A stretch of 64,000 bases of DNA from assembly GCA_028821265.1 (NCBI GenBank), contig JAPPGU010000008.1:108716-172715 (forward strand). Direction: 5' to 3'. Origin of the DNA: a bacterium (GTDB taxonomy: Bacteria > Actinomycetota > Acidimicrobiia > Spongiisociales > Spongiisociaceae). Under the pieces are notes generated by a model, which was not told the origin of the DNA, searched no databases, and was given only the letters and a program-made list of their open reading frames with translations. Positions within the stretch are counted from its first letter, which is position 1; each line of letters begins with the position of its first letter. Below are positions 7,118 to 56,248 of the stretch, in pieces. The position numbers were made by a program, and so were the translations under genes.

Positions 7118-7894
7118 TCAGACCGGGTTGTCCTTGCCCTCTGGACCCATGGCTGTGTACCCGCCGTCCACCTTGAGATCGATGCCGGTGATGAACGAGG
7201 CGTCGTCGCTGCAGAGAAACAGGATCGCCCTGGCCACATCCATCGTCTCGCCACAGCGGTCGAGCATGAGGCGCGGGATGATGTAGTCCTCGAATGCCTG
7301 GCGCTCCATGACGTTGGCGGTGGCTTCGGTCCAGGTCCATCCCGGGCTGACCGTGTTGGCCCGGATGCCGTAGGCGCCCAGGTCGAGGGCCATGCACTTC
7401 GTCATCGCCACCAGCGCCCCCTTGGTGCTGTGATAGGTCCAGGCGCCCGGCTTGGCGACTCCCGCCACCACGCTCGCCACGTTCACGATGGCGCCGTTGC
7501 CCGCCTGCTTCAGCGGCTCGAAGGCGGCCCGGACCATGTTGGTAGCGCCCAGAACGTTGGTGGACCAGCTGGCCTCCCACTCCTCCCTGGTCACATCCAG
7601 CCCCGCGACCACGAAGCTGGCTGCATTGTTGACCAGGCAATCGACCCGGCCGAACGTGTCGACCGCAGCCGCCACCGCCCGGCGGCAGTCTTCCACTCGT
7701 GCCACGCTGCCGCGCACCGACCGCAGTGCGTCGGGCGAGCAGTCGAGGCCTCGAACGAGGGTGTCGTGGTCCACCGGCCGACGATCGAGCACCACCACCC
7801 GGGCGCCCTCCCGGAGGAATTCGCCGGCGGTTGCCCGGCCGATCCCGGACGCCCCCCCGGTAACCAGCACCACCCGATTCTCGAAGCGCATCAT
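7118..7894 (-). CDS. Short-chain dehydrogenase/reductase
   Basis: TGGASGIG, NNA, YHSTK, IRANTVSPG. Confidence 0.92.
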   Translation of the reverse strand: MMRFENRVVLVTGGASGIGRATAGEFLREGARVVVLDRRPVDHDTLVRGLDCSPDALRSVRGSVARVEDCRRAVAAAVDTFGRVDCLVNNAASFVVAGLDVTREEWEASWSTNVLGATNMVRAAFEPLKQAGNGAIVNVASVVAGVAKPGAWTYHSTKGALVAMTKCMALDLGAYGIRANTVSPGWTWTEATANVMERQAFEDYIIPRLMLDRCGETMDVARAILFLCSDDASFITGIDLKVDGGYTAMGPEGKDNPV

Positions 7895-8023
7895 GAGGGT
7901 CTCCATTCCCGAGGAGCCATGGCCTGAGACCTCACCCGGTGAGGGTCCCACGCCGCCTGCCCGCAAGCGTATGGCCGGCCCGGGTGGGCGTCAACATCGT
8001 GGTGCTCGCAGGCGTCACGCCGG

Positions 8024-8245
8024 CTAGATGGTTGTATCCCGCTCGATGGCCTGCCAGCGGCCGCAGCCTCCGGCGTGGAACCAGCGCTCCTGCTTCGCTC
8101 CCTCCGTGTTGCTCATCATGAAGCCACGGTCCACATCACGTTCGTCGGCTCCGGTCAGGTGGTCGGGAGGGTCGGGAACCTCGCCGTACACCCACTCGTC
8201 GACCGGGCGGACACCACAATGCGGGCAGTGGAGACGCAGGGCCAT
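8024..8245 (-). CDS. soxD: Sarcosine oxidase delta-subunit-like Zn protein
   Basis: CPHCGxRPxxEW and ERWFHAGGCGRW; start overlaps the beta-subunit stop. Confidence 0.85.
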   Translation of the reverse strand: MALRLHCPHCGVRPVDEWVYGEVPDPPDHLTGADERDVDRGFMMSNTEGAKQERWFHAGGCGRWQAIERDTTI

Positions 8246-9459
8246 CAGTGCGTCGTCCCGGTCGAACCGGGGTCGAACATCAGCCGGTCCTCCTTGAAGC
8301 GGTTCAGGGAGAAAGGGGCGATCAGCTCGGGCGTGCGATCCGTGGCTATGAGCTCCGCCATTTGCTCGCCGCCGGCGGGGATCCCCTTGAATCCCCACGT
8401 TCCCCAGCCTGTCGTGACCAGGAAGCCGTCCACCCCCGTGTATCCCATTATCGGGGACAGGTCGACCGACATGTCACAGACGCCGGCCCACTGGCGCAGG
8501 ATCGTCAGGTTCCTCAGGAACGGGAGAAGGGTGACGGCGGGAAGCGAGCAATGCGAGAGGAACTCGTAGCTGGAACGGTACGAGTAGCTCGGCTGGCTGT
8601 CGATGCCGGCGCCCAGGAGCATCTCTCCTCTCGGCGTCTGGCTTACGTAGAAACCCATCTCCGCCGATGCGACGATGGGGCGGAAGGAACCGGCGTAGTG
8701 GTTGGTGACGAACGCCTGGAGGGGATGGGTGCGGATCGGTAGCCGCACTCCTGCCATGGCCGCCAGGGTCGAGACATGGCCCCCCACCGCGCTCACGACG
8801 ACTCCGGCCGACACCGGTCCCCGGTCGGTCAGCACACCCGTGACCCGGTCTCCGGGCTTGAGCAGGCCGGTCACGGCGGTTCGCTGGTGGACGTGGACCC
8901 CGAGCTTCATAGCGCCCTCCGCCAGCGCCCACACCACCCGGTCATGGCGCGCCGTGGCGGCGTGGGGACTGTACGTGCCCCCCGTTACCCGGTACTCGCC
9001 ACCCCCGGCGTTCAGGTCCACCTCCGGACAGATCCGGCCCACCTCCTCCGGAGTCACGTACACCGTGTCGGCTCCGAAGGCCTGGTTGACGATGGACCGC
9101 GCCCGCTCGTGGCGGGTACCGGGAGTCCCGTGGACCAACCACAGGAGACCCTTGCGGTCGTGCATGATCCAGCGCCCGGTCTCCTCCTCCAACCTGGAGT
9201 AGAGGTCGACGCTCCGCTGGTAGAAGCGGACCGCCTCGGGGATTCCGTAGTTCGCCCGGATGATGGTGGTGTTACGACCGGAGTTGCCCGATCCGATGTA
9301 GCCACGTTCCAGAACCGCCACGTTCGTCATCCCGTGGCGGGTAGCCAGGTGATAGGCGGTCGACAGGCCATGCCCGCCTCCCCCGACGATCACCACGTCG
9401 TAGGACGATCGGAGGTCCTCCCACCCGAAGGCCACCTGGGCTTCGATGAACTCGTTCAT
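8245..9459 (-). CDS. soxB: Sarcosine oxidase beta-subunit-like FAD oxidoreductase
   Basis: YDVVIVGGGGHGLSTAYHLA, GRNTTIIRANY, GWGTWGFKG. Confidence 0.88.
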   Translation of the reverse strand: MNEFIEAQVAFGWEDLRSSYDVVIVGGGGHGLSTAYHLATRHGMTNVAVLERGYIGSGNSGRNTTIIRANYGIPEAVRFYQRSVDLYSRLEEETGRWIMHDRKGLLWLVHGTPGTRHERARSIVNQAFGADTVYVTPEEVGRICPEVDLNAGGGEYRVTGGTYSPHAATARHDRVVWALAEGAMKLGVHVHQRTAVTGLLKPGDRVTGVLTDRGPVSAGVVVSAVGGHVSTLAAMAGVRLPIRTHPLQAFVTNHYAGSFRPIVASAEMGFYVSQTPRGEMLLGAGIDSQPSYSYRSSYEFLSHCSLPAVTLLPFLRNLTILRQWAGVCDMSVDLSPIMGYTGVDGFLVTTGWGTWGFKGIPAGGEQMAELIATDRTPELIAPFSLNRFKEDRLMFDPGSTGTTH

Positions 9460-9863
9460 TCCCGCCTATCCCCCAGACCGAGACGCTCCTCCAGGTGGTG
9501 CGCCAGCACGGCCGGCACTAGGACCCGAACCCCGCCCTCGTCGAAGAGCATCTTGACCGGTATGCCGGCAAGGTGCCCCTGGGCGACCGCCGGACGGTGC
9601 CGGGGAAACTCCCAGGCCGACACGGCTTGCAGACGAGCCAGTTGGGAGCGGCCGAACCAGGCCGCCGAGAAGCCGGCCTCGGGCTCGATGATGGCGTACC
9701 GGTCGGCTACGTCGACCCGCGCCAGGGCCGGTAGCACGAGCAGGTCGTCAGGGGCCAGACGCATCAAGCGCCCGTCGTCCGGCGATTCGATCCCGTCGAG
9801 CGCCCCGGGGTCGGCGACGATCCTGGTGGCCTCCAACCGCTCGAAGCGTTCAGGCACGGACAC
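9456..9863 (-). CDS. Sarcosine oxidase gamma-subunit-like protein
   Basis: GTG at 9863 with GGAGGG RBS; LAPDDLLV and WEFP..RPAVAQGHLAG resemble the GcvT/SoxG fold; lies between alpha and beta. Confidence 0.6.
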   Translation of the reverse strand: MSVPERFERLEATRIVADPGALDGIESPDDGRLMRLAPDDLLVLPALARVDVADRYAIIEPEAGFSAAWFGRSQLARLQAVSAWEFPRHRPAVAQGHLAGIPVKMLFDEGGVRVLVPAVLAHHLEERLGLGDRRE

Positions 9864-12072
9864 GTGAACCCTCCGGATCGTAGAAAGGCACGGCCACCTT
9901 CCGAGCCGGGCGTCCATCGATCAGGATGTCGCCGGCAAACGCCCCGTCCCGGGCGTACAGCCAGGCCAGCATCACCGAGCGGCCCAGCACGCGGGACCAG
10001 GTGGTGGAGGTCACGAACCCGGCGTAGTCGCCTTTCACCCGCAGGATGGCGCCCTGGGGCGGCGGACCGCCATCCATCTCCAAGCCCACCAGGAGCCTGT
10101 CCAACTCCATCCGGGAGGTCCGGGCCACCGCGGGCTTACCCAGGAAGTCCGCCTTGTCCATCCGGACCGCCCAGCCGTGACCCAACCGGCGGGGCGTGGA
10201 GTCCGGCAGGCTGTCCACCCCGACCAGAATGTGGCCCTTCTCGAGACGCAACTCTTCCAGCACCTCCAGCCCGTGCGGCCACACGCCCAGGTCCGCGCCG
10301 GACTCCATCAAGGCATGCCAGAGGTGGCGCGATTCACTCGCCTGGTGGTGGAGTTCGTAGGAGATCTCGCCCGTGAAGCTGAGCCTCATGACCCGGCACG
10401 CGACACCCGCCACCTCCATCTCCGTGTGGCCCATGAAAGGAGGCAGCCAATCAGCGGCGCCGAGCCGGGAGAGGAGCTCACCGGACCGGGGTCCGGTCAC
10501 GTTGATCGCCCCCCAAGAGGCGGTGCGGTCCAGGATCCTCACGTCCACCTTCCAGGCCTCGGCCCAGTCGCTCAGCCACATCTCGAAGTGGCCGGCGCCG
10601 GCGGACGTGGAGGTGAGCAGGAACCGGTTCGCGCCCTCGCGGCACACCAGCCCGTCGTCGAACACGTAGCCGCGCTCGTCGAGAACCAGTACGTACTTCG
10701 CCCGGCCGGGGCGGAGCGGGCTGATGCATGTCGGGTAGATACGCTCGAGGAACGCGTCCGCGTCGGGACCTGACACCAGGATCTTCCCCAGGGTGCTCAC
10801 GTCGCAGATGGACACCCCGGACCGGACCGCCCAGTACTCGCGGTCCGCGTCTCCGTAGGTCCAGGGCCTGAGCCAGCCTCCGGAGCGTTCCATCCTGGCC
10901 CCCAGAGCAAGATGCTCGTCATGGAGAGCGGTCCGCCGGTCGGGATGGTGGTACCAGCCCGCCGCGGCCTCCCCCATCGTGATCTGGGTGACCACCGGAC
11001 GAGCGGTGAACGACGGAGGCAGTTCCTGCCCCCCTGCGGCCACGAAGCTGCGCACGTGCGGCATGCAGACGGCGCCCTGGCAGGCACCCGTACCCGCCAA
11101 CGTGGACCGCTTGATCAACTCCAATTCGTGAAATCCGCGGTCCCACACCGACCGAAGATCGTCCACCGTGACCTCGGAACACGGGCAGACGACGCCCGCC
11201 TCGGGTACGGGCGGCCGGTCAAGATGTCCGGCGGCGCTGCCCACCGCGCGCGCTCCCGGCAAGCCGTGGGCCATCCGGGCGAGCGTGTCCCGCGGACCCG
11301 ATCCGAGACCGACCACGGCGGTATCGCATGGATATGCGCGTTCGGCGCCGGTCTCCTCGTCCCGGGTAACCACCCGCCGCACCACTCCTTCCCCCTCGAA
11401 GCCGACCAACCTGCCCTGGGCCGGCTCGTGGCCCACTCCCTCCGGTGGCCTACCGACCGATACCACCCTTCCCAGATCCACTCCGGAAGCTGCCAGCCCC
11501 TCGGCTGCCCGCCTGGTCAGGATGCCGGCCAGCTGGTTCCCGGGACATACGGGCTGCACCTCGACCGACCCGGTCGCCACCACGACCTCCTCGCTGAAGA
11601 TCCTCGCCATGCCTTCAGGTGTCCGGGCCACCACCTCCGGACCGGGATATACGCCGACCGCTTCCGTGCCGGCCCGCGCGTCGAGGGTGACCACCCTGCG
11701 TCCTCTCTCCTCGGCCTCGGCAGCCGCCTCCCTCCCCGAACGACCCTGGCCGATCACCACGGTGTCGCAATGGACCATCTCGAAGCCGACCGCACTCTCG
11801 CCGGTGGGCGCTCGGGTGGACGATGGAAGGGGCGGGTACCCGCCGGACGGATGCGAGGCGACCTTCATGCCTTCGACGGCCGAAGTCCGGCAGGCGCGAA
11901 CGTACGAGACTCCCCCGAGGGTGACCAGGCAGTAGGGGCAGTCGCCGTCGGCGCACAGGCATCCGCCCCACGGCCTCAGACCGGCTCGGAAAACAGCTGT
12001 CAGGACCGTGTCACCCGCCTCGAACGGGACCTGCGTCCCGTCGAAGTCGATCACCTTGCCCGGGCGAGTCAT
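9850..12072 (-). CDS. Sarcosine oxidase alpha-like protein: 2Fe-2S domain, BFD-like cluster and GcvT (THF-binding) domain
   Basis: ATG at 12072 overlaps the upstream stop (ATGA). CLCADGDCPYC, CPCSEV...GTGACQGAVC, DVSTLGKI.VSGPDA, LRLEKGHI. 740 aa. Confidence 0.85.
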   Translation of the reverse strand: MTRPGKVIDFDGTQVPFEAGDTVLTAVFRAGLRPWGGCLCADGDCPYCLVTLGGVSYVRACRTSAVEGMKVASHPSGGYPPLPSSTRAPTGESAVGFEMVHCDTVVIGQGRSGREAAAEAEERGRRVVTLDARAGTEAVGVYPGPEVVARTPEGMARIFSEEVVVATGSVEVQPVCPGNQLAGILTRRAAEGLAASGVDLGRVVSVGRPPEGVGHEPAQGRLVGFEGEGVVRRVVTRDEETGAERAYPCDTAVVGLGSGPRDTLARMAHGLPGARAVGSAAGHLDRPPVPEAGVVCPCSEVTVDDLRSVWDRGFHELELIKRSTLAGTGACQGAVCMPHVRSFVAAGGQELPPSFTARPVVTQITMGEAAAGWYHHPDRRTALHDEHLALGARMERSGGWLRPWTYGDADREYWAVRSGVSICDVSTLGKILVSGPDADAFLERIYPTCISPLRPGRAKYVLVLDERGYVFDDGLVCREGANRFLLTSTSAGAGHFEMWLSDWAEAWKVDVRILDRTASWGAINVTGPRSGELLSRLGAADWLPPFMGHTEMEVAGVACRVMRLSFTGEISYELHHQASESRHLWHALMESGADLGVWPHGLEVLEELRLEKGHILVGVDSLPDSTPRRLGHGWAVRMDKADFLGKPAVARTSRMELDRLLVGLEMDGGPPPQGAILRVKGDYAGFVTSTTWSRVLGRSVMLAWLYARDGAFAGDILIDGRPARKVAVPFYDPEGSRVRA

Positions 12073-13394
12073 CGCAGCCCGAGAGGGTAGCCGGAGAGCA
12101 GCTCGGCTCCGCGATCGGTCACCAACACCTGCTGCTCCAGCTTGACGCCCTCCCCCCGGCCCCACCGACCCACGAAGGACTCTACGCACAGCACCATTCC
12201 GGCCTCCACCACGCCGTCCCAACCGGACTGGTCCCAGGTGTCGGGATAGACGATCATCGGCCACTCGTCCGCCATGCCCACCCCGTGGAACTGCGTGGTG
12301 TAGTGACGGAACCGCTCCACATCCGGCACGTAGGTGTCGAAGGTCAGTTCGCGGAAGGTAATGCCGGGACGGAGCATCGCCATGTTGCGGTGGATCATCT
12401 CCTCCGCCCGCCCGAACACATCGAGTTGGTGGGCATTCGGAGGTTTGTCACCGGCGATCCACGTTCTCGAGATGTCCACGCACATCCCGAACGGGCCGAT
12501 CAGGTCGGTGTCGAAGGCCACGAGGTCACCGTCCTCGATCACCCGGGCGGACGCCTCCTGGAACCACGGGTTGGTGCGGGGGCCGGAGGACAGCAGGCGG
12601 GTCTCTAGCCACTCTCCACCCCGGCGCACGTTCTCCGAGTGGAGCACAGCCCAGAGCTCCAGCTCAGTGACACCCGGTTCGAGAGCCGCACGCATAGCGT
12701 CCAGGGAGCGATCGGTCACTACGGTCGCCGCCCTTATCAGCGTGATCTCCTCGGGGCTCTTGACGGATCGGGCGACCTCCATGACCTCCCCGCCGTTGCG
12801 GAGTTCGAGTCCGCGCCCCTCCAGGGCGTGGATGGCGTCGGGACTCGCCCGATCGATAGCGACCCGACGGTTCCCATCACCGTGTTCCTCCACCACGGAG
12901 GCCAGTTCGGCGGACCACCGGCGCAGGTTCCGGTCCATCTCGATCCCGGACAACTCGTACATCCACTGGGTGGCGGGCCGTACCTCCTCGACCAGTCGGG
13001 CGTGCCCGGCCAGGAAGGCCGCATCGCCGTAGTCGAACAGGATCATGGGACCCTCGGCGCCGACCCACAGGTACCGGCAGGGGTTGTGAGCGGTCCACAG
13101 GGACATGTTGGTGGTGTCGGAGGCGTAGCGGATGTGAACCGGGTCGTAGAGAACGATCCCCGCGTAGTCGAGTTCCCGCAACCGGTCTCGCACCCGGCCC
13201 AAGCGGTAGCGGCGCACCACGTCCAAGTCGGGAAGAACGATCCCGGCAGCCGCTATCTCCGCGAGGGCGTCCGGTGGCAGGCCGATCGAGTGCCAGTTGT
13301 CTGCCACGGCCCGCCGGTATTCCGCGCCACCGACTCCTCGGGGGCCGATCCGGCTACCGACCCGTGGTCCGAATGCGTCGGGACCGGTTTTCAT
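12069..13394 (-). CDS. dddP: DddP-like M24B metallo-enzyme (DMSP lyase family), copy 2
   Basis: LPDL..R..R, NM.LW.AHNP, HSENVRRGGEWLETRLLSSGPRTNPWFQE, AFDTDLIG, CVDISRTW, HGVG.ADEWP, GMVLCVE, KLEQQV match remembered roseobacter DddP; all metal ligands present. Activity unproven. Confidence 0.78.
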   Translation of the reverse strand: MKTGPDAFGPRVGSRIGPRGVGGAEYRRAVADNWHSIGLPPDALAEIAAAGIVLPDLDVVRRYRLGRVRDRLRELDYAGIVLYDPVHIRYASDTTNMSLWTAHNPCRYLWVGAEGPMILFDYGDAAFLAGHARLVEEVRPATQWMYELSGIEMDRNLRRWSAELASVVEEHGDGNRRVAIDRASPDAIHALEGRGLELRNGGEVMEVARSVKSPEEITLIRAATVVTDRSLDAMRAALEPGVTELELWAVLHSENVRRGGEWLETRLLSSGPRTNPWFQEASARVIEDGDLVAFDTDLIGPFGMCVDISRTWIAGDKPPNAHQLDVFGRAEEMIHRNMAMLRPGITFRELTFDTYVPDVERFRHYTTQFHGVGMADEWPMIVYPDTWDQSGWDGVVEAGMVLCVESFVGRWGRGEGVKLEQQVLVTDRGAELLSGYPLGLR

Positions 13395-13470
13395 CGGCGG
13401 TGGTAAACGCCCGGTCTCGCCACCGGAGAGGAGGCTCCCTCAATCGGACCGTCGAACTCAAGAAACGCGA

Positions 13471-14799
13471 TCATCGGAGGCCGATCGGAAACCGGGACAG
13501 AAGCTCGTGACCATGCTCGGTCACCAGCACCTGCTGCTCGAGTTTGACCCCCTCGCCCCAACCCCTCCTGCCCACGAAGGACTCGACGCACAGTACCATT
13601 CCAGGCTCCACCACACCGTCGTAGCCAGCCTGGTCCCACGTTTGCGGAAGGCCGATCATCGGCCACTCGTCGGCCATACCGACCCCGTGGAACTGGTTCG
13701 AGTAGGAGTTGAACTCGTCGATGTCGGGAAGCCAGGCATCGAAGGTGAGCTCCCGGAAGGTGACACCCGGGCGCACCATCTCGATATTGCGCCGGATCGT
13801 CTCCTCGGCGCGGGCAAAGACATCCTGCTGGTTGGCATTGGGACGCCGGGAGCCGGCGATCCAGGTGCGCGAGATGTCGACGCACATCCCGAAGATGCCT
13901 ATCAGGTCGGTGTCGAACGCCACCAGATCCCCGTCCTCGATCACCCGCCCGGCGGCCTCGTGGAACCAGGGGTTGGTCCGCGGACCGGAACAGAGGAAAC
14001 GATTCTCGATCCACTCACCTCCACGGCGGATGTTCTCCGCGTGGAGGATCGCCCACAAGTCCAGTTCGGTCATGCCGGGCTCGAGTGAAGCCCTCATCGC
14101 TTCCACGGAATGCTCGGCCGCCACCAGCGCGGCTCGCATCAGGGTGACCTCCTCCGGGCTCTTCACCGAGCGAGCCACCTCCATGACCTCGCCCCCGTTG
14201 CGGAGCTCGAGTCCCCGCTGATCCAGGGCGTGAATGGCATCAGGACTGGCCCGATCGATTGCCACCCGCCGGTTGCCCGACCCGTGCTCCGCTACCACGG
14301 AGGCCAACTCGGAGGACCACCTACGCAGATAGCGCTCCATCTCGATCCCCGCGAGTTCGTACATCCACTGGGTAGCCGGCCGTACCTCGTCCACCAGGGG
14401 GTTGTGTCCTGCCAGGAATGCGGTCTCCGAGAAGTCGAAGAGAATCATGGGCCCCTCGGCTCCCACCCAGAGGTATCGGCAGGGGTTGTGCGCGCTCCAC
14501 AGAGTCATGTTGGTGGCATCGCACGCGTAACGGATGTGTACCGGGTCGTAGAGGATTATGCCCGCATAGTCGAGATCTCTCAGGCGATCTCGCACCCGTT
14601 GAAGGCGGTACCGCCTCACCACATCCAGGTCGGGGAGGACGATGCCCTCGGCCTCGATCTCCGCGAGCGTCTGGGCGGGCAATCCTACCGAGTGCCGGTT
14701 GTTCGCCACGTCCGACCGGTACCCTGCGGATCCGCTCCGGCCGGGTCCGATTCGGCGGCCGGAGGGCGGGCCTCCCAAGTGATGGGTCATATCAGCCAT
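13471..14799 (-). CDS. dddP: DddP-like M24B metallo-enzyme (DMSP lyase family), copy 1
   Basis: Same motifs as the adjacent copy (HAENIRRGGEWIENRFLCSGPRTNPWF, FDTDLIG, CVDISRTW, HGVGMADEWP, CVE, KLE). Confidence 0.78.
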   Translation of the reverse strand: MADMTHHLGGPPSGRRIGPGRSGSAGYRSDVANNRHSVGLPAQTLAEIEAEGIVLPDLDVVRRYRLQRVRDRLRDLDYAGIILYDPVHIRYACDATNMTLWSAHNPCRYLWVGAEGPMILFDFSETAFLAGHNPLVDEVRPATQWMYELAGIEMERYLRRWSSELASVVAEHGSGNRRVAIDRASPDAIHALDQRGLELRNGGEVMEVARSVKSPEEVTLMRAALVAAEHSVEAMRASLEPGMTELDLWAILHAENIRRGGEWIENRFLCSGPRTNPWFHEAAGRVIEDGDLVAFDTDLIGIFGMCVDISRTWIAGSRRPNANQQDVFARAEETIRRNIEMVRPGVTFRELTFDAWLPDIDEFNSYSNQFHGVGMADEWPMIGLPQTWDQAGYDGVVEPGMVLCVESFVGRRGWGEGVKLEQQVLVTEHGHELLSRFPIGLR

Positions 14800-15118
14800 G
14801 GCTCAGCGGCGGGATCGGGTTTGGTCGCCGGCGTGCCAGGTTACAGCCGTACTCACAGGCCGGCAGCCAAGGCACGGCCCTCTCCCGGACAAACCGCAGA
14901 ACGTGGTGAGCCTCCAGTCAGGTAGCAGCGGATCGTGATCCTTGACAGATGGCTCGAGCGGCGATCGGTGGATGCCTGCTGGCAAGCGATCCGCGACCGG
15001 TTTTCCGGACAAATCGCGTGGCTGACCGGGGCGGGAGCACCCGTTTCGTTCTAGGGTGATCACACCGGCGTGATGCTTCGCAGCAGGTCCGGGAGAGGCC
15101 GGAAGGAAAGGGGAGACC

Positions 15119-36993: not shown

Positions 36994-39900
36994 TCACTGC
37001 TCTTTCTCGACCTTCATCTTCCGGCGGTTGAAGGCCGTCGCCTCGGTCTCCACCACCAGATCCTCGTCCAGTATCACCCCGTAGTCTCGTAGGGCCGCCT
37101 CACGTCCGATCTTGCCGTTCCTCACGTCCTCGGCGACGTGCCGCGGGTCCCGTTCCAACGGATTACCCCAGCCGCCGCCGCCCGCCTGAACGTGGTGGTA
37201 CAGCTCGCCCGCAGCCAGGCCGTCGCTGAACATAGGCGGGAACTCCTCGTCCTCGCCGGACAGCCTCGAAACGGTGTTGGCGGACAATCCGCCCGGCGCG
37301 CCGCCCATCAGACCGAAGGGCGGGTGCCGCTGGCGGTCGGAGCGGATCAGCAGGGAGGTGGGCACCAGCGGCCGCCATGACTTCTCCAGACCGAGACCAC
37401 CGCGGTGGCGCCCCGCCCCGCCGCTGTCGGGCACCAGGCCATAGCGTTCGATAATGATCGGGAATTCGGCTTCGGCCACCTCGATGGGGACGTTGGCTGC
37501 AGTGGCTATGGGGTTGCTGAGCCCGTCGTTCCCGTCGCCCTCAGGAGTGGCTCCCCAGGTCCCGACCAGTAGCTCGAAGTAGACGAAGGGCTCGCCGTCA
37601 TCGTGATGACCTCCAAGAATGACGACGGTGTTGCCACCCTCTCCGGCCGCGGGCACGCGGTCCGGGACCAGTTGGGCTAGGGCGCCGTTGATGGCGTCGA
37701 AGGCGCGGAACCCGGTGACGCCCCTCATCGAGTTGGCGCCCGGATAGACGGCGTGGGTGACCGTCCCCGGTTTTGTAACGATGCGGACCGGGCGGAAGGC
37801 ACCGGCGGTGTTGGGGAACTCCGAGGCGGCGGCCGACATGACGCAGTGGTATGCGGTCGCCACGATGAACGAACGGGTGGCATTGAGAGACCCCGCCACC
37901 ATGGGATCCGAATCCGAGAGGTCGACCATCACCTCATCCTCCTGGATCGTCACCTTCACCCTTATGGCCACGTCCCGGCTCTCGATCCCGTCCGAGTCCA
38001 TGTAGTCGGTGAAGGTGGCGGTCCCGTCCGGCCAGGTGGAGATCTCCTTGCGCATCAGGACCTCGGTGTAGTCGATAAGCCCGTCCATCAGCTCGGTCAG
38101 CCGCCCGATCCCGTACCGCTCGGCCATCGCCTGCAACGCCCTTTCCCCGACCGAGCAGGCCGCCACCTGGGCGCCGAGATCGCCGAAGAGCATGTGGGGA
38201 ACCCGTACGTTGGCCCTGATGAGGGCGTGGACCTCCTCCACGGGCCGGCCCTCCTTGTACAGGTGCATCCACGGTATCCGGAGACCGTCCTGGAACACCT
38301 CGGTGTTGTCGGTGGCCGAGCTCCCGAGCAGCCTTCCGCCGATGTCACCGTGGTGGGCGGTGGCCACGCCGTAGCCGATCAGGGTGTCCTCGTAGTAGAC
38401 GGGCTTTATGACGAACACGTCGGGTAAGTGCATGCCGCCGTCGAACGGATCGTTCATGATGAAGACGTCACCGGGGCGCATCCTGTCGCGGAAGCGGGCG
38501 AGGAGGGCATCCACGGCCGTGGGGACCGCCCCGAGATGGAAGGGAATGGTCACGGCCTGGGCAACGGTCTGGGCGTCCGGACCGAGCAGGGCGGCGGAGA
38601 AGTCCATGGCGTCCCGAACCACGGTCGAGTGGGCGGTCCGGAAGATGGTGGTGGCCATCTCGTCGGCGGCGGAAGCCAGGGCGTTGGCGACTATCTGGCG
38701 GGTCACGACATCGGCATGCTGTACCTCGGTCTTGCCGCCTTCCTCGTGGCTGAGGAAGAGGGCGCCCGATGCATGCCGGCGGGCGACCCAGCCGGGCGGC
38801 ACCACGATCGTGGTGTCGTATTCGTCGACGAGCAGCGGACCGGTCATCCCGTCCGGTCCCACGCCGGTCCTCCGTGCCAGCACCGGAGCGTCCAGGTAGC
38901 CACCGGCCAGGCTGAAGAGGGCGGGACGCGAGCCGTCGGATGGCTCGGCTCCGTCGGCGTGGCCGCTAAGCGTGGCTTCCTGCGACACCTGCCTGGTTCG
39001 GGGCAGGGGCCCGAGGGCGGCGAGTCGGACCGCTCGCACCTCGATCGGGTCGTCCGGATCCTTGCGTACGCCGTACAACTGCTCGTGGCGGTCCTCGAAG
39101 TCCGCCACCAGCTTCGCCAGCCCGGTAACCGTCATCTCGGTCTCCGCAATGGTCACCTCGATGTCGAAGCTCTGGCCCTTGTAGCGCACGTCGGCGGATC
39201 GGACCCACTCGGTAACGCCGCCGGAGATGCTCGACTCCAGTCGGGACTCCAGCTCGGCCAGCAGTCGGGACATGGTGGGGATCACCGAGGAGTCCCTGGC
39301 GTCGAGTTCGCAGAACCGGACATCGTGGTACTCCGGCCGGGCGTAGAGGAGACCAGCCGCAGAGAAGACCCCGGCATTGGGGGGCACGACCACCGTGTCG
39401 ATCCCCAGTTCGGTCGCCAGGCTGGCCGCGTGGATAGGACCTGCCCCGCCGAAGGCGATCAGGGCGAACTCCCGCGGATCACGCCCGCGTTCTGACGAGA
39501 CCGCGCGCAGGGCGCGCATCATCCGGGCGTTGGCCAGATCGTGGACACCCCGGGCGGCCTCCGCCACCGGAATCCCCAGTGGGGTGGCCACCGACTCCAG
39601 GGCGGACCTCGCCAGACCCGGTTTGATCGATACGGCATCCCCGGCGAGCGGTCCGGACCGGACGTAGCCCAGCACCACGTTGGCGTCGGTCACGGTGGGA
39701 TCGTCCCCGCCGAGGCCGTAGCAGGCGGGACCGGGAACCGCCCCCGCGCTGCGAGGACCCACCTGGAGGCCTCCGGCGGAGTCCACCCAGGCGATGCTCC
39801 CGCCACCGGCCCCCACCTCGGCGATGTCGATGCTCGGCACCCTCAGCAGCTCTCCGGAACCACGCAGCAACCGGGTCCCCACCGATAGGTCGGCGCCCAC

Positions 39901-40863
39901 CTCGTATTCCCTGCTGAGGGTCACCCGCCCTTCCTCGATCAGCGACGCCTTGGCCGTGGTGCCGCCCATGTCGAACGAGATGGCGTTCGCTATGCCCAGT
40001 TCCCTGGCCAATCCCTGCGCGGCCACCACCCCGGCCGCCGGACCGGACTCGAGGGCGTAGACCGGCCGGTGGGCCGCGTCGGCGGCGGTCATGGCGCCGC
40101 CGGACGACTGCATGATCAGTACCGGAGCATCTACCCCGACTCCTTCCAGACCGTCCACGAGATCGCGCACGTAGGCGCCCATGATCGGGATCACGTAGGC
40201 ATTGAGGGCGGTGGTGGCGGATCGCTCGTACTCGTTCTGCTCCCTGAGAACCTCGTTCGACAGCACGACATGGACGCCCGGGAGTTCGCGTCTCAGGATC
40301 CGCGCCACCTGCTCCTCATGGGCCGGGTACTTGTGGGCGTGCAGCAGGCAGACCGCCACCGCCTCCACATGCTCGTCGCGCAGTCGGGCGGCCACGTCCG
40401 CCACTTCGGCCTCGTCAACCGGACGGTGGGACGTCCCGTCGGCCAGCATGCGCTCGCCGATCTCGAACCGGAGGCGCCTCTCGACAATCGGCGGCGGCTT
40501 GCGCCAGAACGGGTTGTAGAGGTGGGGCATCCTGACTCTGCGGAGCTCCAGCACGTCGCGGAACCCCTCCGTGGTCACCAGGGCCAGGTGGGCGCCCCGG
40601 CGCTCCAGGATGGCGTTGGTCGCCACCGTGGTCCCGTGGATCACCTCCTGGACCAGGGTTGGCGCCGCCCGGGGAGAGTCACCCAGCAAGGTGTCGATGG
40701 CGACGGTGACCGCCTTGTCGAAGGAGGGAGGTGTGGACAGCACCTTGCGCGTGGTGGTGCGGCCGTCGGGTTCCTGGACGATGACGTCGGTAAAGGTGCC
40801 GCCTACATCCGCGCCTACCCGGCTACCCACGCCAACCCCACTCTTCGCGACAGACGTCGACAC
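36994..40863 (-). CDS. Fused hydantoinase A+B / oxoprolinase-family ATP-dependent cyclic amide hydrolase
   Basis: DVGGTFTD, HGTTVATN, SGPAAG, DMGGTT in the A half; NDPFDGGMHLPD, HHGDIGG, GGAGRHRGG, GGGGWG in the B half. Confidence 0.92.
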   Translation of the reverse strand: MSTSVAKSGVGVGSRVGADVGGTFTDVIVQEPDGRTTTRKVLSTPPSFDKAVTVAIDTLLGDSPRAAPTLVQEVIHGTTVATNAILERRGAHLALVTTEGFRDVLELRRVRMPHLYNPFWRKPPPIVERRLRFEIGERMLADGTSHRPVDEAEVADVAARLRDEHVEAVAVCLLHAHKYPAHEEQVARILRRELPGVHVVLSNEVLREQNEYERSATTALNAYVIPIMGAYVRDLVDGLEGVGVDAPVLIMQSSGGAMTAADAAHRPVYALESGPAAGVVAAQGLARELGIANAISFDMGGTTAKASLIEEGRVTLSREYEVGADLSVGTRLLRGSGELLRVPSIDIAEVGAGGGSIAWVDSAGGLQVGPRSAGAVPGPACYGLGGDDPTVTDANVVLGYVRSGPLAGDAVSIKPGLARSALESVATPLGIPVAEAARGVHDLANARMMRALRAVSSERGRDPREFALIAFGGAGPIHAASLATELGIDTVVVPPNAGVFSAAGLLYARPEYHDVRFCELDARDSSVIPTMSRLLAELESRLESSISGGVTEWVRSADVRYKGQSFDIEVTIAETEMTVTGLAKLVADFEDRHEQLYGVRKDPDDPIEVRAVRLAALGPLPRTRQVSQEATLSGHADGAEPSDGSRPALFSLAGGYLDAPVLARRTGVGPDGMTGPLLVDEYDTTIVVPPGWVARRHASGALFLSHEEGGKTEVQHADVVTRQIVANALASAADEMATTIFRTAHSTVVRDAMDFSAALLGPDAQTVAQAVTIPFHLGAVPTAVDALLARFRDRMRPGDVFIMNDPFDGGMHLPDVFVIKPVYYEDTLIGYGVATAHHGDIGGRLLGSSATDNTEVFQDGLRIPWMHLYKEGRPVEEVHALIRANVRVPHMLFGDLGAQVAACSVGERALQAMAERYGIGRLTELMDGLIDYTEVLMRKEISTWPDGTATFTDYMDSDGIESRDVAIRVKVTIQEDEVMVDLSDSDPMVAGSLNATRSFIVATAYHCVMSAAASEFPNTAGAFRPVRIVTKPGTVTHAVYPGANSMRGVTGFRAFDAINGALAQLVPDRVPAAGEGGNTVVILGGHHDDGEPFVYFELLVGTWGATPEGDGNDGLSNPIATAANVPIEVAEAEFPIIIERYGLVPDSGGAGRHRGGLGLEKSWRPLVPTSLLIRSDRQRHPPFGLMGGAPGGLSANTVSRLSGEDEEFPPMFSDGLAAGELYHHVQAGGGGWGNPLERDPRHVAEDVRNGKIGREAALRDYGVILDEDLVVETEATAFNRRKMKVEKEQ

Positions 40864-40875
40864 CTGACGCCGGCG

Positions 40876-52557: not shown

Positions 52558-56202
<3,645 letters not shown>

Positions 56203-56248
56203 CCGACCGGCCGCGGTCCGGGGTTAGTTGTCTCCGGCTCGATGACGC

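Follow-up and report, generated by a model that had tools for sequence, protein, structure and literature searches.

A pair of DddP-related M24 genes in an operon with a sarcosine-oxidase-type complex in a Spongiisociaceae genome

The operon described here lies in a 64,000-nt stretch of an Acidimicrobiia genome of the family Spongiisociaceae (JAPPGU010000008.1, positions 108,716-172,715; this whole stretch is referred to as the window, within which the operon coordinates are given). Two genes for DddP-like M24 metalloenzymes, named P1 and P2, are followed there by the genes for the alpha, gamma, beta and delta subunits of an oxidase related to heterotetrameric sarcosine oxidase and by an SDR-family gene. 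It might be possible, and is the reading that we favour with some reservation, that the M24 enzymes release an N-methyl amino acid, which then undergoes sarcosine-type oxidation, while the formation of dimethylsulfide (DMS) is a less likely role. This reading draws on the position of P1 and P2 outside the clade of validated lyases of dimethylsulfoniopropionate (DMSP), on their coupling to the oxidase, and on the genes that accompany related oxidases in other bacteria.

Gene arrangement and relationship of the M24 enzymes to DddP

Seven co-oriented open reading frames with the third-position G+C bias typical of real genes occupy positions 7118-14799 on the minus strand of the window (G+C content about 66%) in the order P1, P2, alpha, gamma, beta, delta and SDR, exactly where the initial annotation had placed them. 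The overlaps that it had reported between P2 and alpha and among the four oxidase subunits were likewise read directly in the sequence. P2 (12069..13394, 441 aa), the oxidase-linked copy, overlaps with alpha (9850..12072, 740 aa) in an ATGA at 12072-12069. The junction between alpha and gamma (9456..9863, about 133-135 aa) is a GTGCCTGA overlap, the start of gamma being a GTG at 9857 or 9863, whilst gamma and beta (8245..9459, 404 aa) overlap in a further ATGA at 9459-9456, and beta and delta (8024..8245, 73 aa) in a TGATG. P1 (13471..14799, 442 aa), the accessory tandem copy, is separated from P2 by a gap of 76 nt. Both M24 proteins combine a Peptidase_M24 with a Creatinase_N domain.

The best NCBIfam match of both proteins is the DddP model NF043017, with 448.7 bits for P1 and 445.2 bits for P2, and both scores fall short of its curated cut-off of 600 bits. 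In a scan of twelve other genomes the same model gave 866 bits for one Rhodobacteraceae DddP and 542-636 bits for one copy per genome in several sponge symbionts, and it also picked up many paralogs with 110-446 bits, up to eight per genome. P1 aligns over its full length with RlDddP (4rzy; 370 bits, about 47% identity), and P1 and P2 are mutually about 76-78% identical. The six metal ligands D295, D297, D307, H371, E406 and E421, among them the DddP-specific D297, are invariant in P1, P2 and their entire clade. Furthermore, D377, Y366 and W95 are conserved in their clade and in all copies of P1 and P2 save one aberrant row of the alignment; for DddP, D377 has been proposed as the catalytic base, while Y366 and W95 hold the sulfonium group (PMC4108388; PMC5395565). 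Hence, the likeness to the known DddP enzymes (RlDddP 4RZY, RdDddP 4B28) includes the two-domain M24 architecture and all hallmark residues. The differences comprise 31 positions that are invariant in true DddP and altered in P1/P2, for example F142E, W42I, N82H and LC375-376MA, the latter being the two residues that precede D377.

The M24 fold, the Creatinase/Prolidase N-terminal domain and the intact ligands of a binuclear metal site would also suit ordinary Xaa-Pro or Xaa-Sar dipeptidases of the prolidase type, which might supply the oxidase with an imino acid. Databases label some relatives as 'Xaa-Pro aminopeptidase', and one Chloroflexi relative of the oxidase operon comes after an Opp/Dpp-type peptide ABC transporter. 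Nevertheless, such a peptidase role is very improbable. At the position of D377, the prolidase-type and aminopeptidase-P-type M24 proteins of the same genome carry His, whereas P1 and P2 carry Asp. The His-bearing loop before the ligand His, which these M24 peptidases keep, is deleted in P1 and P2 exactly as in DddP. Prolidase structures reach about 70 bits or less against P1, compared with 370 bits for DddP, and RlDddP was found to be inactive on Val-Pro (PMC5395565).

Phylogenetic analysis placed the high-scoring proteins together with RlDddP in one clade (SH-aLRT 100) and P1 and P2 in a second clade of 39 sequences (SH-aLRT 93), which includes proteins from other Acidimicrobiia, Chloroflexota and Competibacterales and one Paraburkholderia protein. 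When the tree was rooted with the M24 peptidases of the same genome, the second clade became sister to the validated DddP proteins with a support of 99; the tree search was a rapid one, the branches to the outgroup were long, and the validated DddPs from fungi and Oceanimonas were not part of the data set. A phylogeny against validated DddP had been proposed as a check on the initial annotation, and it sets P1 and P2 outside the validated clade. The term DddP-like therefore stands as far as the hallmark residues, the loop deletion, the His-to-Asp change and the sister position are concerned, but it does not extend to membership in the validated clade or to a score above 600 bits. As judged from these features, P1 and P2 are DddP-type enzymes and no peptidases, outside the validated DMSP-lyase clade. 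At least 7,935 proteins matched the DddP-like query at E <= 1e-20, and the papers on DddP homologs that were consulted describe no characterised member of the P1/P2 clade. The sponge-symbiont Poriferihabitaceae genome G003, which contains locus L014, holds eight DddP-like paralogs with 289-636 bits on the DddP model, which amounts to a large expansion, and some DddP-like paralog clades have G or N in place of the D377 base.

The oxidase complex and its probable substrate

The four genes downstream of P2 all fall short of the respective NCBIfam cut-offs, and their domains, conserved residues and a structural model nonetheless identify the alpha-gamma-beta-delta set as a true relative of heterotetrameric sarcosine oxidase (TSOX; SoxBDAG; 1X31/1VRQ, 2GAG). 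Beta is a SoxB-type flavoprotein with a DAO domain that reaches 378.9 bits on TIGR01373 (cut-off 529) and 342 bits with about 45% identity against the TSOX beta chain 1vrq_B. Its 'arHD' motif aligns with 'akHD' of 1vrq_B and the His is conserved, which we take to be the site of covalent flavin mononucleotide (FMN) attachment in TSOX beta. The genome encodes no second strong SoxB homolog besides beta (379 bits, the next protein reaching 147 bits). Two weaker SoxB/DAO-like genes of this genome, G000:C85:16880-18013 and G000:C42:23295-24368, contain one in-frame TGA each. Delta, a small SoxD-type subunit (PF04267, 56.8 bits), contains the sequence CPHC ... H..GGC, a zinc-ribbon-type motif as in TSOX that presumably corresponds to the Cys3His zinc site of the latter.

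Gamma gave no Pfam or NCBIfam match, yet the gene is conserved in its position between alpha and beta in the relatives. An AlphaFold (AF2) model built from the relatives' alignment (pLDDT 90.7) found the TSOX gamma chain 1vrq_C as first Foldseek match (TMq 0.66, E 3e-4) and 2gag_C as fourth. Both are gamma chains of sarcosine oxidase, and the label that the initial annotation had given to this short SoxG-like subunit is therefore right.

The alpha subunit deviates from that of TSOX. It comprises a Fer2_4 domain, a weak Pyr_redox_2 match, a BFD-like 2Fe-2S domain (Fer2_BFD), GCV_T (229.7 bits) and GCV_T_C (34.1 bits), and scores 312 bits on TIGR01372 compared with a cut-off of 1164. The alignment with TSOX alpha covers chiefly residues 302-737, that is, the tetrahydrofolate-binding half including the GcvT domain common to both. 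The N-terminal 300 residues are a reduced version that carries two conserved Cys4 motifs, and alpha, with its reduced nucleotide-binding region, has 740 aa here and about 965 aa in TSOX. Among 21 homologs, 19-20 retain C40/C45/C48/C61, and all 21 retain C296/C298/C331/C336; TSOX alpha lacks these motifs, and no cysteines are aligned with the first of them. According to the Pfam domains, they are compatible with a Fer2_4-type and a BFD-type 2Fe-2S site. Hence, the motifs may bind clusters and the enzyme may be a dehydrogenase that passes electrons to an acceptor other than O2. Further differences from TSOX are the gene order, which is A-G-B-D here and B-D-A-G there, and the size of gamma (about 135 aa versus approximately 195-200 aa), whereas the four-subunit composition and the gamma fold are the same. 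The N-terminal Fer2_4 and BFD-like motifs combined with a DAO-type partner subunit are also reminiscent of the Fe-S flavoenzymes of the HcnABC/opine oxidase type. However, these enzymes have neither a GcvT/tetrahydrofolate domain nor SoxD or SoxG subunits.

The genes around related oxidases point to the substrate. In relatives at 49-60% identity, A-G-B-D directly follows an MttB-like methyltransferase gene and an 832-aa DAO-GCV_T gene (L125, L126 and the metagenome contig L144), a fusion of the dimethylglycine-dehydrogenase type. L124 is partial, and only the DAO-GCV_T gene is visible upstream of A-G-B-D before the contig start cuts it off. In L126 alone, a gamma-butyrobetaine-hydroxylase-like gene comes after A-G-B-D (operon L126:5937-15199). 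MttB-like, DAO-GCV_T and A-G-B-D genes apparently form a complete betaine demethylation route in these other Acidimicrobiia, and since the gene order matches the sequence betaine, dimethylglycine, sarcosine, glycine, the complex would be placed at the sarcosine step. On this genomic association of relatives, the substrate of the oxidase is probably sarcosine. The genome of the window, which is 84.6% complete, contains two MttB genes and several open reading frames of 830-865 aa with matches to GcvT-type or SoxB-type models, as would fit DAO-GCV_T fusions. Acidimicrobiia and Chloroflexi apparently employ this short-alpha A-G-B-D form of the oxidase for the last betaine demethylation step; no description of this form with its short Fe-S alpha was found in the searched literature.

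Distribution and evolution of the locus

Close relatives of P1 were all found in metagenome-assembled genomes (MAGs) of sponge-associated Acidimicrobiia (Candidatus Spongiisocius / Spongiisociaceae). Searches by tblastn with the window proteins located P2 directly upstream of alpha-gamma-beta-delta in ten loci from nine genomes. The linkage, for which a survey of MAGs had been suggested, is therefore conserved and not unique to the genome of the window, though it is confined to Spongiisociaceae. It was absent from about 70 DddP-like loci of other taxa and from 18 short-alpha oxidase loci of other Acidimicrobiia, Chloroflexi and metagenomes. The more distant clade members P0023, P0115, P0053, P0056 and P0104 stand in variable contexts that indicate no substrate.

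The linked loci occur in two types. Type A has the tandem P1-P2 with the oxidase, and its neighbours are a class-III aminotransferase, pyridoxal-phosphate enzymes, a PhyH dioxygenase and a GNAT protein. In type B, P2 stands alone before the oxidase, and the locus further holds the SDR, an esterase of the beta-lactamase fold and an ABC binding protein together with permeases. The SDR gene follows delta only in type-B loci (the window, L107, L109 and L114), and the ATGA overlap between P2 and alpha is replaced by a 13-nt gap in type-A loci. The complete chromosome OZ241858 holds both types. The window has type-B flanks, yet P1 is present. This tandem copy was found in five genomes and is absent from L107 (MAG CO36387bin_10); compared with this 95-96% identical locus, the P1-bearing segment 13454-14984 (about 1.5 kb) of the window represents an insertion, and the segment shares 93% identity with the P1 region of the type-A-like locus L108 (RHO1_bin_3). 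The locus in the window is therefore a mosaic of the two paralogous operon types, for which recombination, loss in L107 or an assembly effect could be responsible. A chimeric assembly of two paralogous operons is conceivable, but as the P1 segment directly abuts the type-B flank upstream, a simple collapse within the repeat would not account for the arrangement.

Both M24 copies are under purifying selection, with ratios of nonsynonymous to synonymous substitutions (dN/dS) against their orthologs of 0.13-0.14 for P1 and 0.12-0.13 for P2. The synonymous distance (dS) is about 1.1 for the split between P1 and P2 compared with 0.45-0.6 for the species splits; the paralog split is thus the older one.

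Related genes were also observed in other surroundings. In L084 (715-9332), L085 and L086, DddP-like genes of other Acidimicrobiia with 55-56% identity adjoin a cluster of gamma-butyrobetaine-hydroxylase-like, BKACE, 3HCDH-thioesterase and acyl-CoA dehydrogenase genes, which is of the carnitine/gamma-butyrobetaine catabolism type and has IclR regulators and a GcvT-type gene nearby. A 5-Mb Spongiisociaceae genome (G002, with the loci L012 and L115) contains a DddP-like gene with 74% identity to P1 that is split over two frames (G002:C1:1157900-1159182), possibly as a pseudogene or by a long-read frameshift error, and its short-alpha oxidase operon is located at another site, where no M24 gene adjoins it. 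The latter operon (L115) and a 63% identical M24 gene in L083 adjoin the same divergent trio of LOG-like, MDMPI_N and BtpA genes, which hints that the two once stood at a common site.

Possible reaction of the M24 enzymes

In the reading that we favour, P2 would cleave a small zwitterionic carboxylate that the sponge provides and thereby release sarcosine or a similar N-methyl amino acid, with P1 acting as a second homodimer or as heterodimer partner of P2. Creatine or another N-substituted sarcosine would be candidate substrates, and both hydrolysis and elimination are conceivable at a DddP-type metal centre. The beta flavoprotein would then oxidatively demethylate this product, sarcosine or a closely similar compound, and the GcvT domain of alpha would be the place where tetrahydrofolate takes up the one-carbon unit. 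The second step is the better supported one, and we infer the first. As the stop of P2 overlaps the start of alpha and the pair has been retained through the module duplication, P2 would most simply make the substrate of the oxidase.

A creatinase-like logic is favoured for the first step because creatinase represents a known sarcosine-yielding M24 reaction, is clustered with sarcosine oxidase, and has a substrate that occurs in sponges. To our knowledge, it is the sole M24 reaction known to give sarcosine. In Pseudomonas, Arthrobacter and Roseobacter, creatinase genes form clusters with those for heterotetrameric sarcosine oxidase and hydantoinase (PMC8864220). The earlier statement that no characterised operon was known to combine the two functions did not take this established pairing into account. 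The pairing of an M24 enzyme with sarcosine oxidase is already known; according to the searched literature, the new aspect is a DddP-sister enzyme in that position. The clusters of Pseudomonas putida, Arthrobacter and Roseobacter denitrificans resemble the present operon in having an M24-fold gene beside the heterotetrameric oxidase and in the logic of sarcosine release followed by tetrahydrofolate-linked demethylation, but differ in gene order and in the architecture of alpha (PMC8864220). With regard to the supply, a single deep-sea sponge was shown to contain creatine, betaine, choline, taurine and DMSP, the corresponding pathways being expressed by its symbiont, and creatine is cited as common in sponges (PMC11525543). 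A host environment in which creatine is abundant is a further likeness to the creatinase clusters. No literature was found on creatinase together with sarcosine oxidase in sponges. A comparison with solved structures covered two of the seven M24 proteins of the genome, P1 and the protein on C85, and neither proved to be creatinase-like.

Several observations weigh against this reading. Creatinase is a metal-free enzyme, whereas P1 and P2 keep the metal ligands that it lacks. By sequence, P1 and P2 are no creatinase homologs beyond the common M24 fold, and no creatinase chain was found among the PDB matches of P1 at E <= 1e-5. Beside the operon there is neither a urea-handling gene nor any other gene that would name the substrate, and the M24-oxidase partnership is confined to Spongiisociaceae among the loci searched. 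Finally, the sister position to validated DddP, together with the intact residues for the beta-elimination of DMSP, makes lyase chemistry on DMSP-like onium propionates fully possible for P1 and P2, as far as can be predicted from conserved residues and phylogeny.

In this regard, P1 and P2 might be genuine lyases of DMSP or dimethylsulfoxonium propionate (DMSOP) from a divergent clade, which we consider rather unlikely but worth serious attention. The operon would then co-express two parallel osmolyte routes that share no metabolite, one being DMSP cleavage and the other the sarcosine step in the degradation of betaine or creatine. The conserved catalytic and sulfonium-binding residues, the loop deletion and the His-to-Asp change specific to DddP, the sister-clade position and the full-length identity of about 47% to RlDddP all fit such a role, as does the measurement of DMSP in a deep-sea sponge in which a pathway for DMSP cleavage is expressed by the symbiont (PMC11525543). 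Validated DddPs have Km values of 14-17 mM (PMC5395565), and the specificity of the family is therefore loose. However, the scores of 448 and 445 bits stay below the 600-bit cut-off, while true DddPs of other genomes reach 542-866 bits, and members of the clade occur in non-marine taxa, including soil-type ones such as Paraburkholderia. The initial annotation had recognised no acuI gene nearby, and this holds on a wider scale: neither an AcuI/YhdH acryloyl-CoA reductase for acrylate detoxification nor DmdA has an ortholog above cut-off anywhere in the 84.6% complete genome. An adjacent MDR dehydrogenase was rejected as AcuI, with 50 bits against the archaeal acryloyl-CoA reductase model (cut-off 500). 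P1 and P2 are coupled to a sarcosine-oxidase-type complex instead of acrylate genes. DMS and acrylate would be useless to a sarcosine oxidase, while the 4-nt overlap, the tight conserved spacing and the retention of the pair after module duplication argue for one pathway. Collectively, the low DddP score, the separate clade, the missing AcuI/YhdH and DmdA and the soil-type members speak against a role in DMSP breakdown.

The catalytic apparatus common with DddP could also serve a beta-elimination of the Hofmann type, with a nitrogen counterpart of DMSP such as beta-alanine betaine as substrate, with the oxidase demethylating the released amine. This is close to the original proposal that a beta-onium compound is eliminated and its methylated product handled by the oxidase. 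The 55-56% identical homologs of other Acidimicrobiia beside genes for gamma-butyrobetaine hydroxylase, BKACE and carnitine-dehydrogenase-type proteins, a setting typical of quaternary amines, would be in line with it, as would a genome rich in methylamine-type demethylases and the class-III omega-aminotransferase near both locus types. The leaving group, however, would be trimethylamine or dimethylamine, whereas the relatives of the oxidase stand at the sarcosine step. SoxB-type enzymes act on N-methyl amino acids, and trimethylamine is not among their substrates. With neither DMS nor trimethylamine as a substrate, and with relatives of the oxidase in MttB/dimethylglycine-dehydrogenase operons, the original proposal is not supported on this point. 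Furthermore, no acrylate-handling genes came up in the AcuI/YhdH search of the genome, and the genes of the betaine clusters next to P0030 and P0037 have a divergent orientation and do not lie in a common operon with them. Altogether we regard such an elimination as improbable, if less so than a dipeptidase role.

The accessory SDR-family gene (7118..~7894, minus strand; adh_short_C2, 195.7 bits) is separated without overlap from delta by 129 nt when its start is taken as the ATG at 7894. Upstream, a divergent intergenic region of 319 nt (14800..15118) between P1 and an Amidohydro_2 gene is presumed to contain the promoter; its sequence shows no sigma-70 promoter of the consensus type, and a promoter and terminator scan returned matches no better than chance. 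An NCBIfam scan of the neighbouring genes returned no specific names. The window as a whole (1-64000) forms a catabolic island with five phosphotriesterase-family genes (at 940, 25860, 29063, 35066 and 56249), two fused hydantoinase A+B genes (36994-40875 and 52558-56223), two S15 X-Pro dipeptidyl-peptidase-like genes, Amidohydro_2 genes, several ABC importers and three aminotransferases. The 1293-aa hydantoinase A/B fusion at 36994-40875 was considered as an N-methylhydantoinase link, but its best matches were caprolactamase subunits below cut-off, and no link was established.

It is conceivable, although we remain doubtful, that the DddP sister clade is no clade of DMSP lyases and consists of metal-dependent enzymes that cleave C-N (or C-onium) bonds and, in sponge symbionts, liberate sarcosine or another N-methyl amino acid from a zwitterion of the host for an Fe-S sarcosine dehydrogenase complex. 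Such an enzyme might, for example, be a metal-dependent creatinase that arose by convergence or a lyase acting on a betaine not yet described, with the same doubt attached. The gene dddP serves as a marker for DMS production, and if this view is true, surveys of sponges and metagenomes would contain many misassigned 'dddP' counts. The conserved and translationally coupled occurrence of a DddP sister clade next to a sarcosine-type oxidase suggests that part of the family may act on animal-supplied nitrogen osmolytes and not on DMSP.

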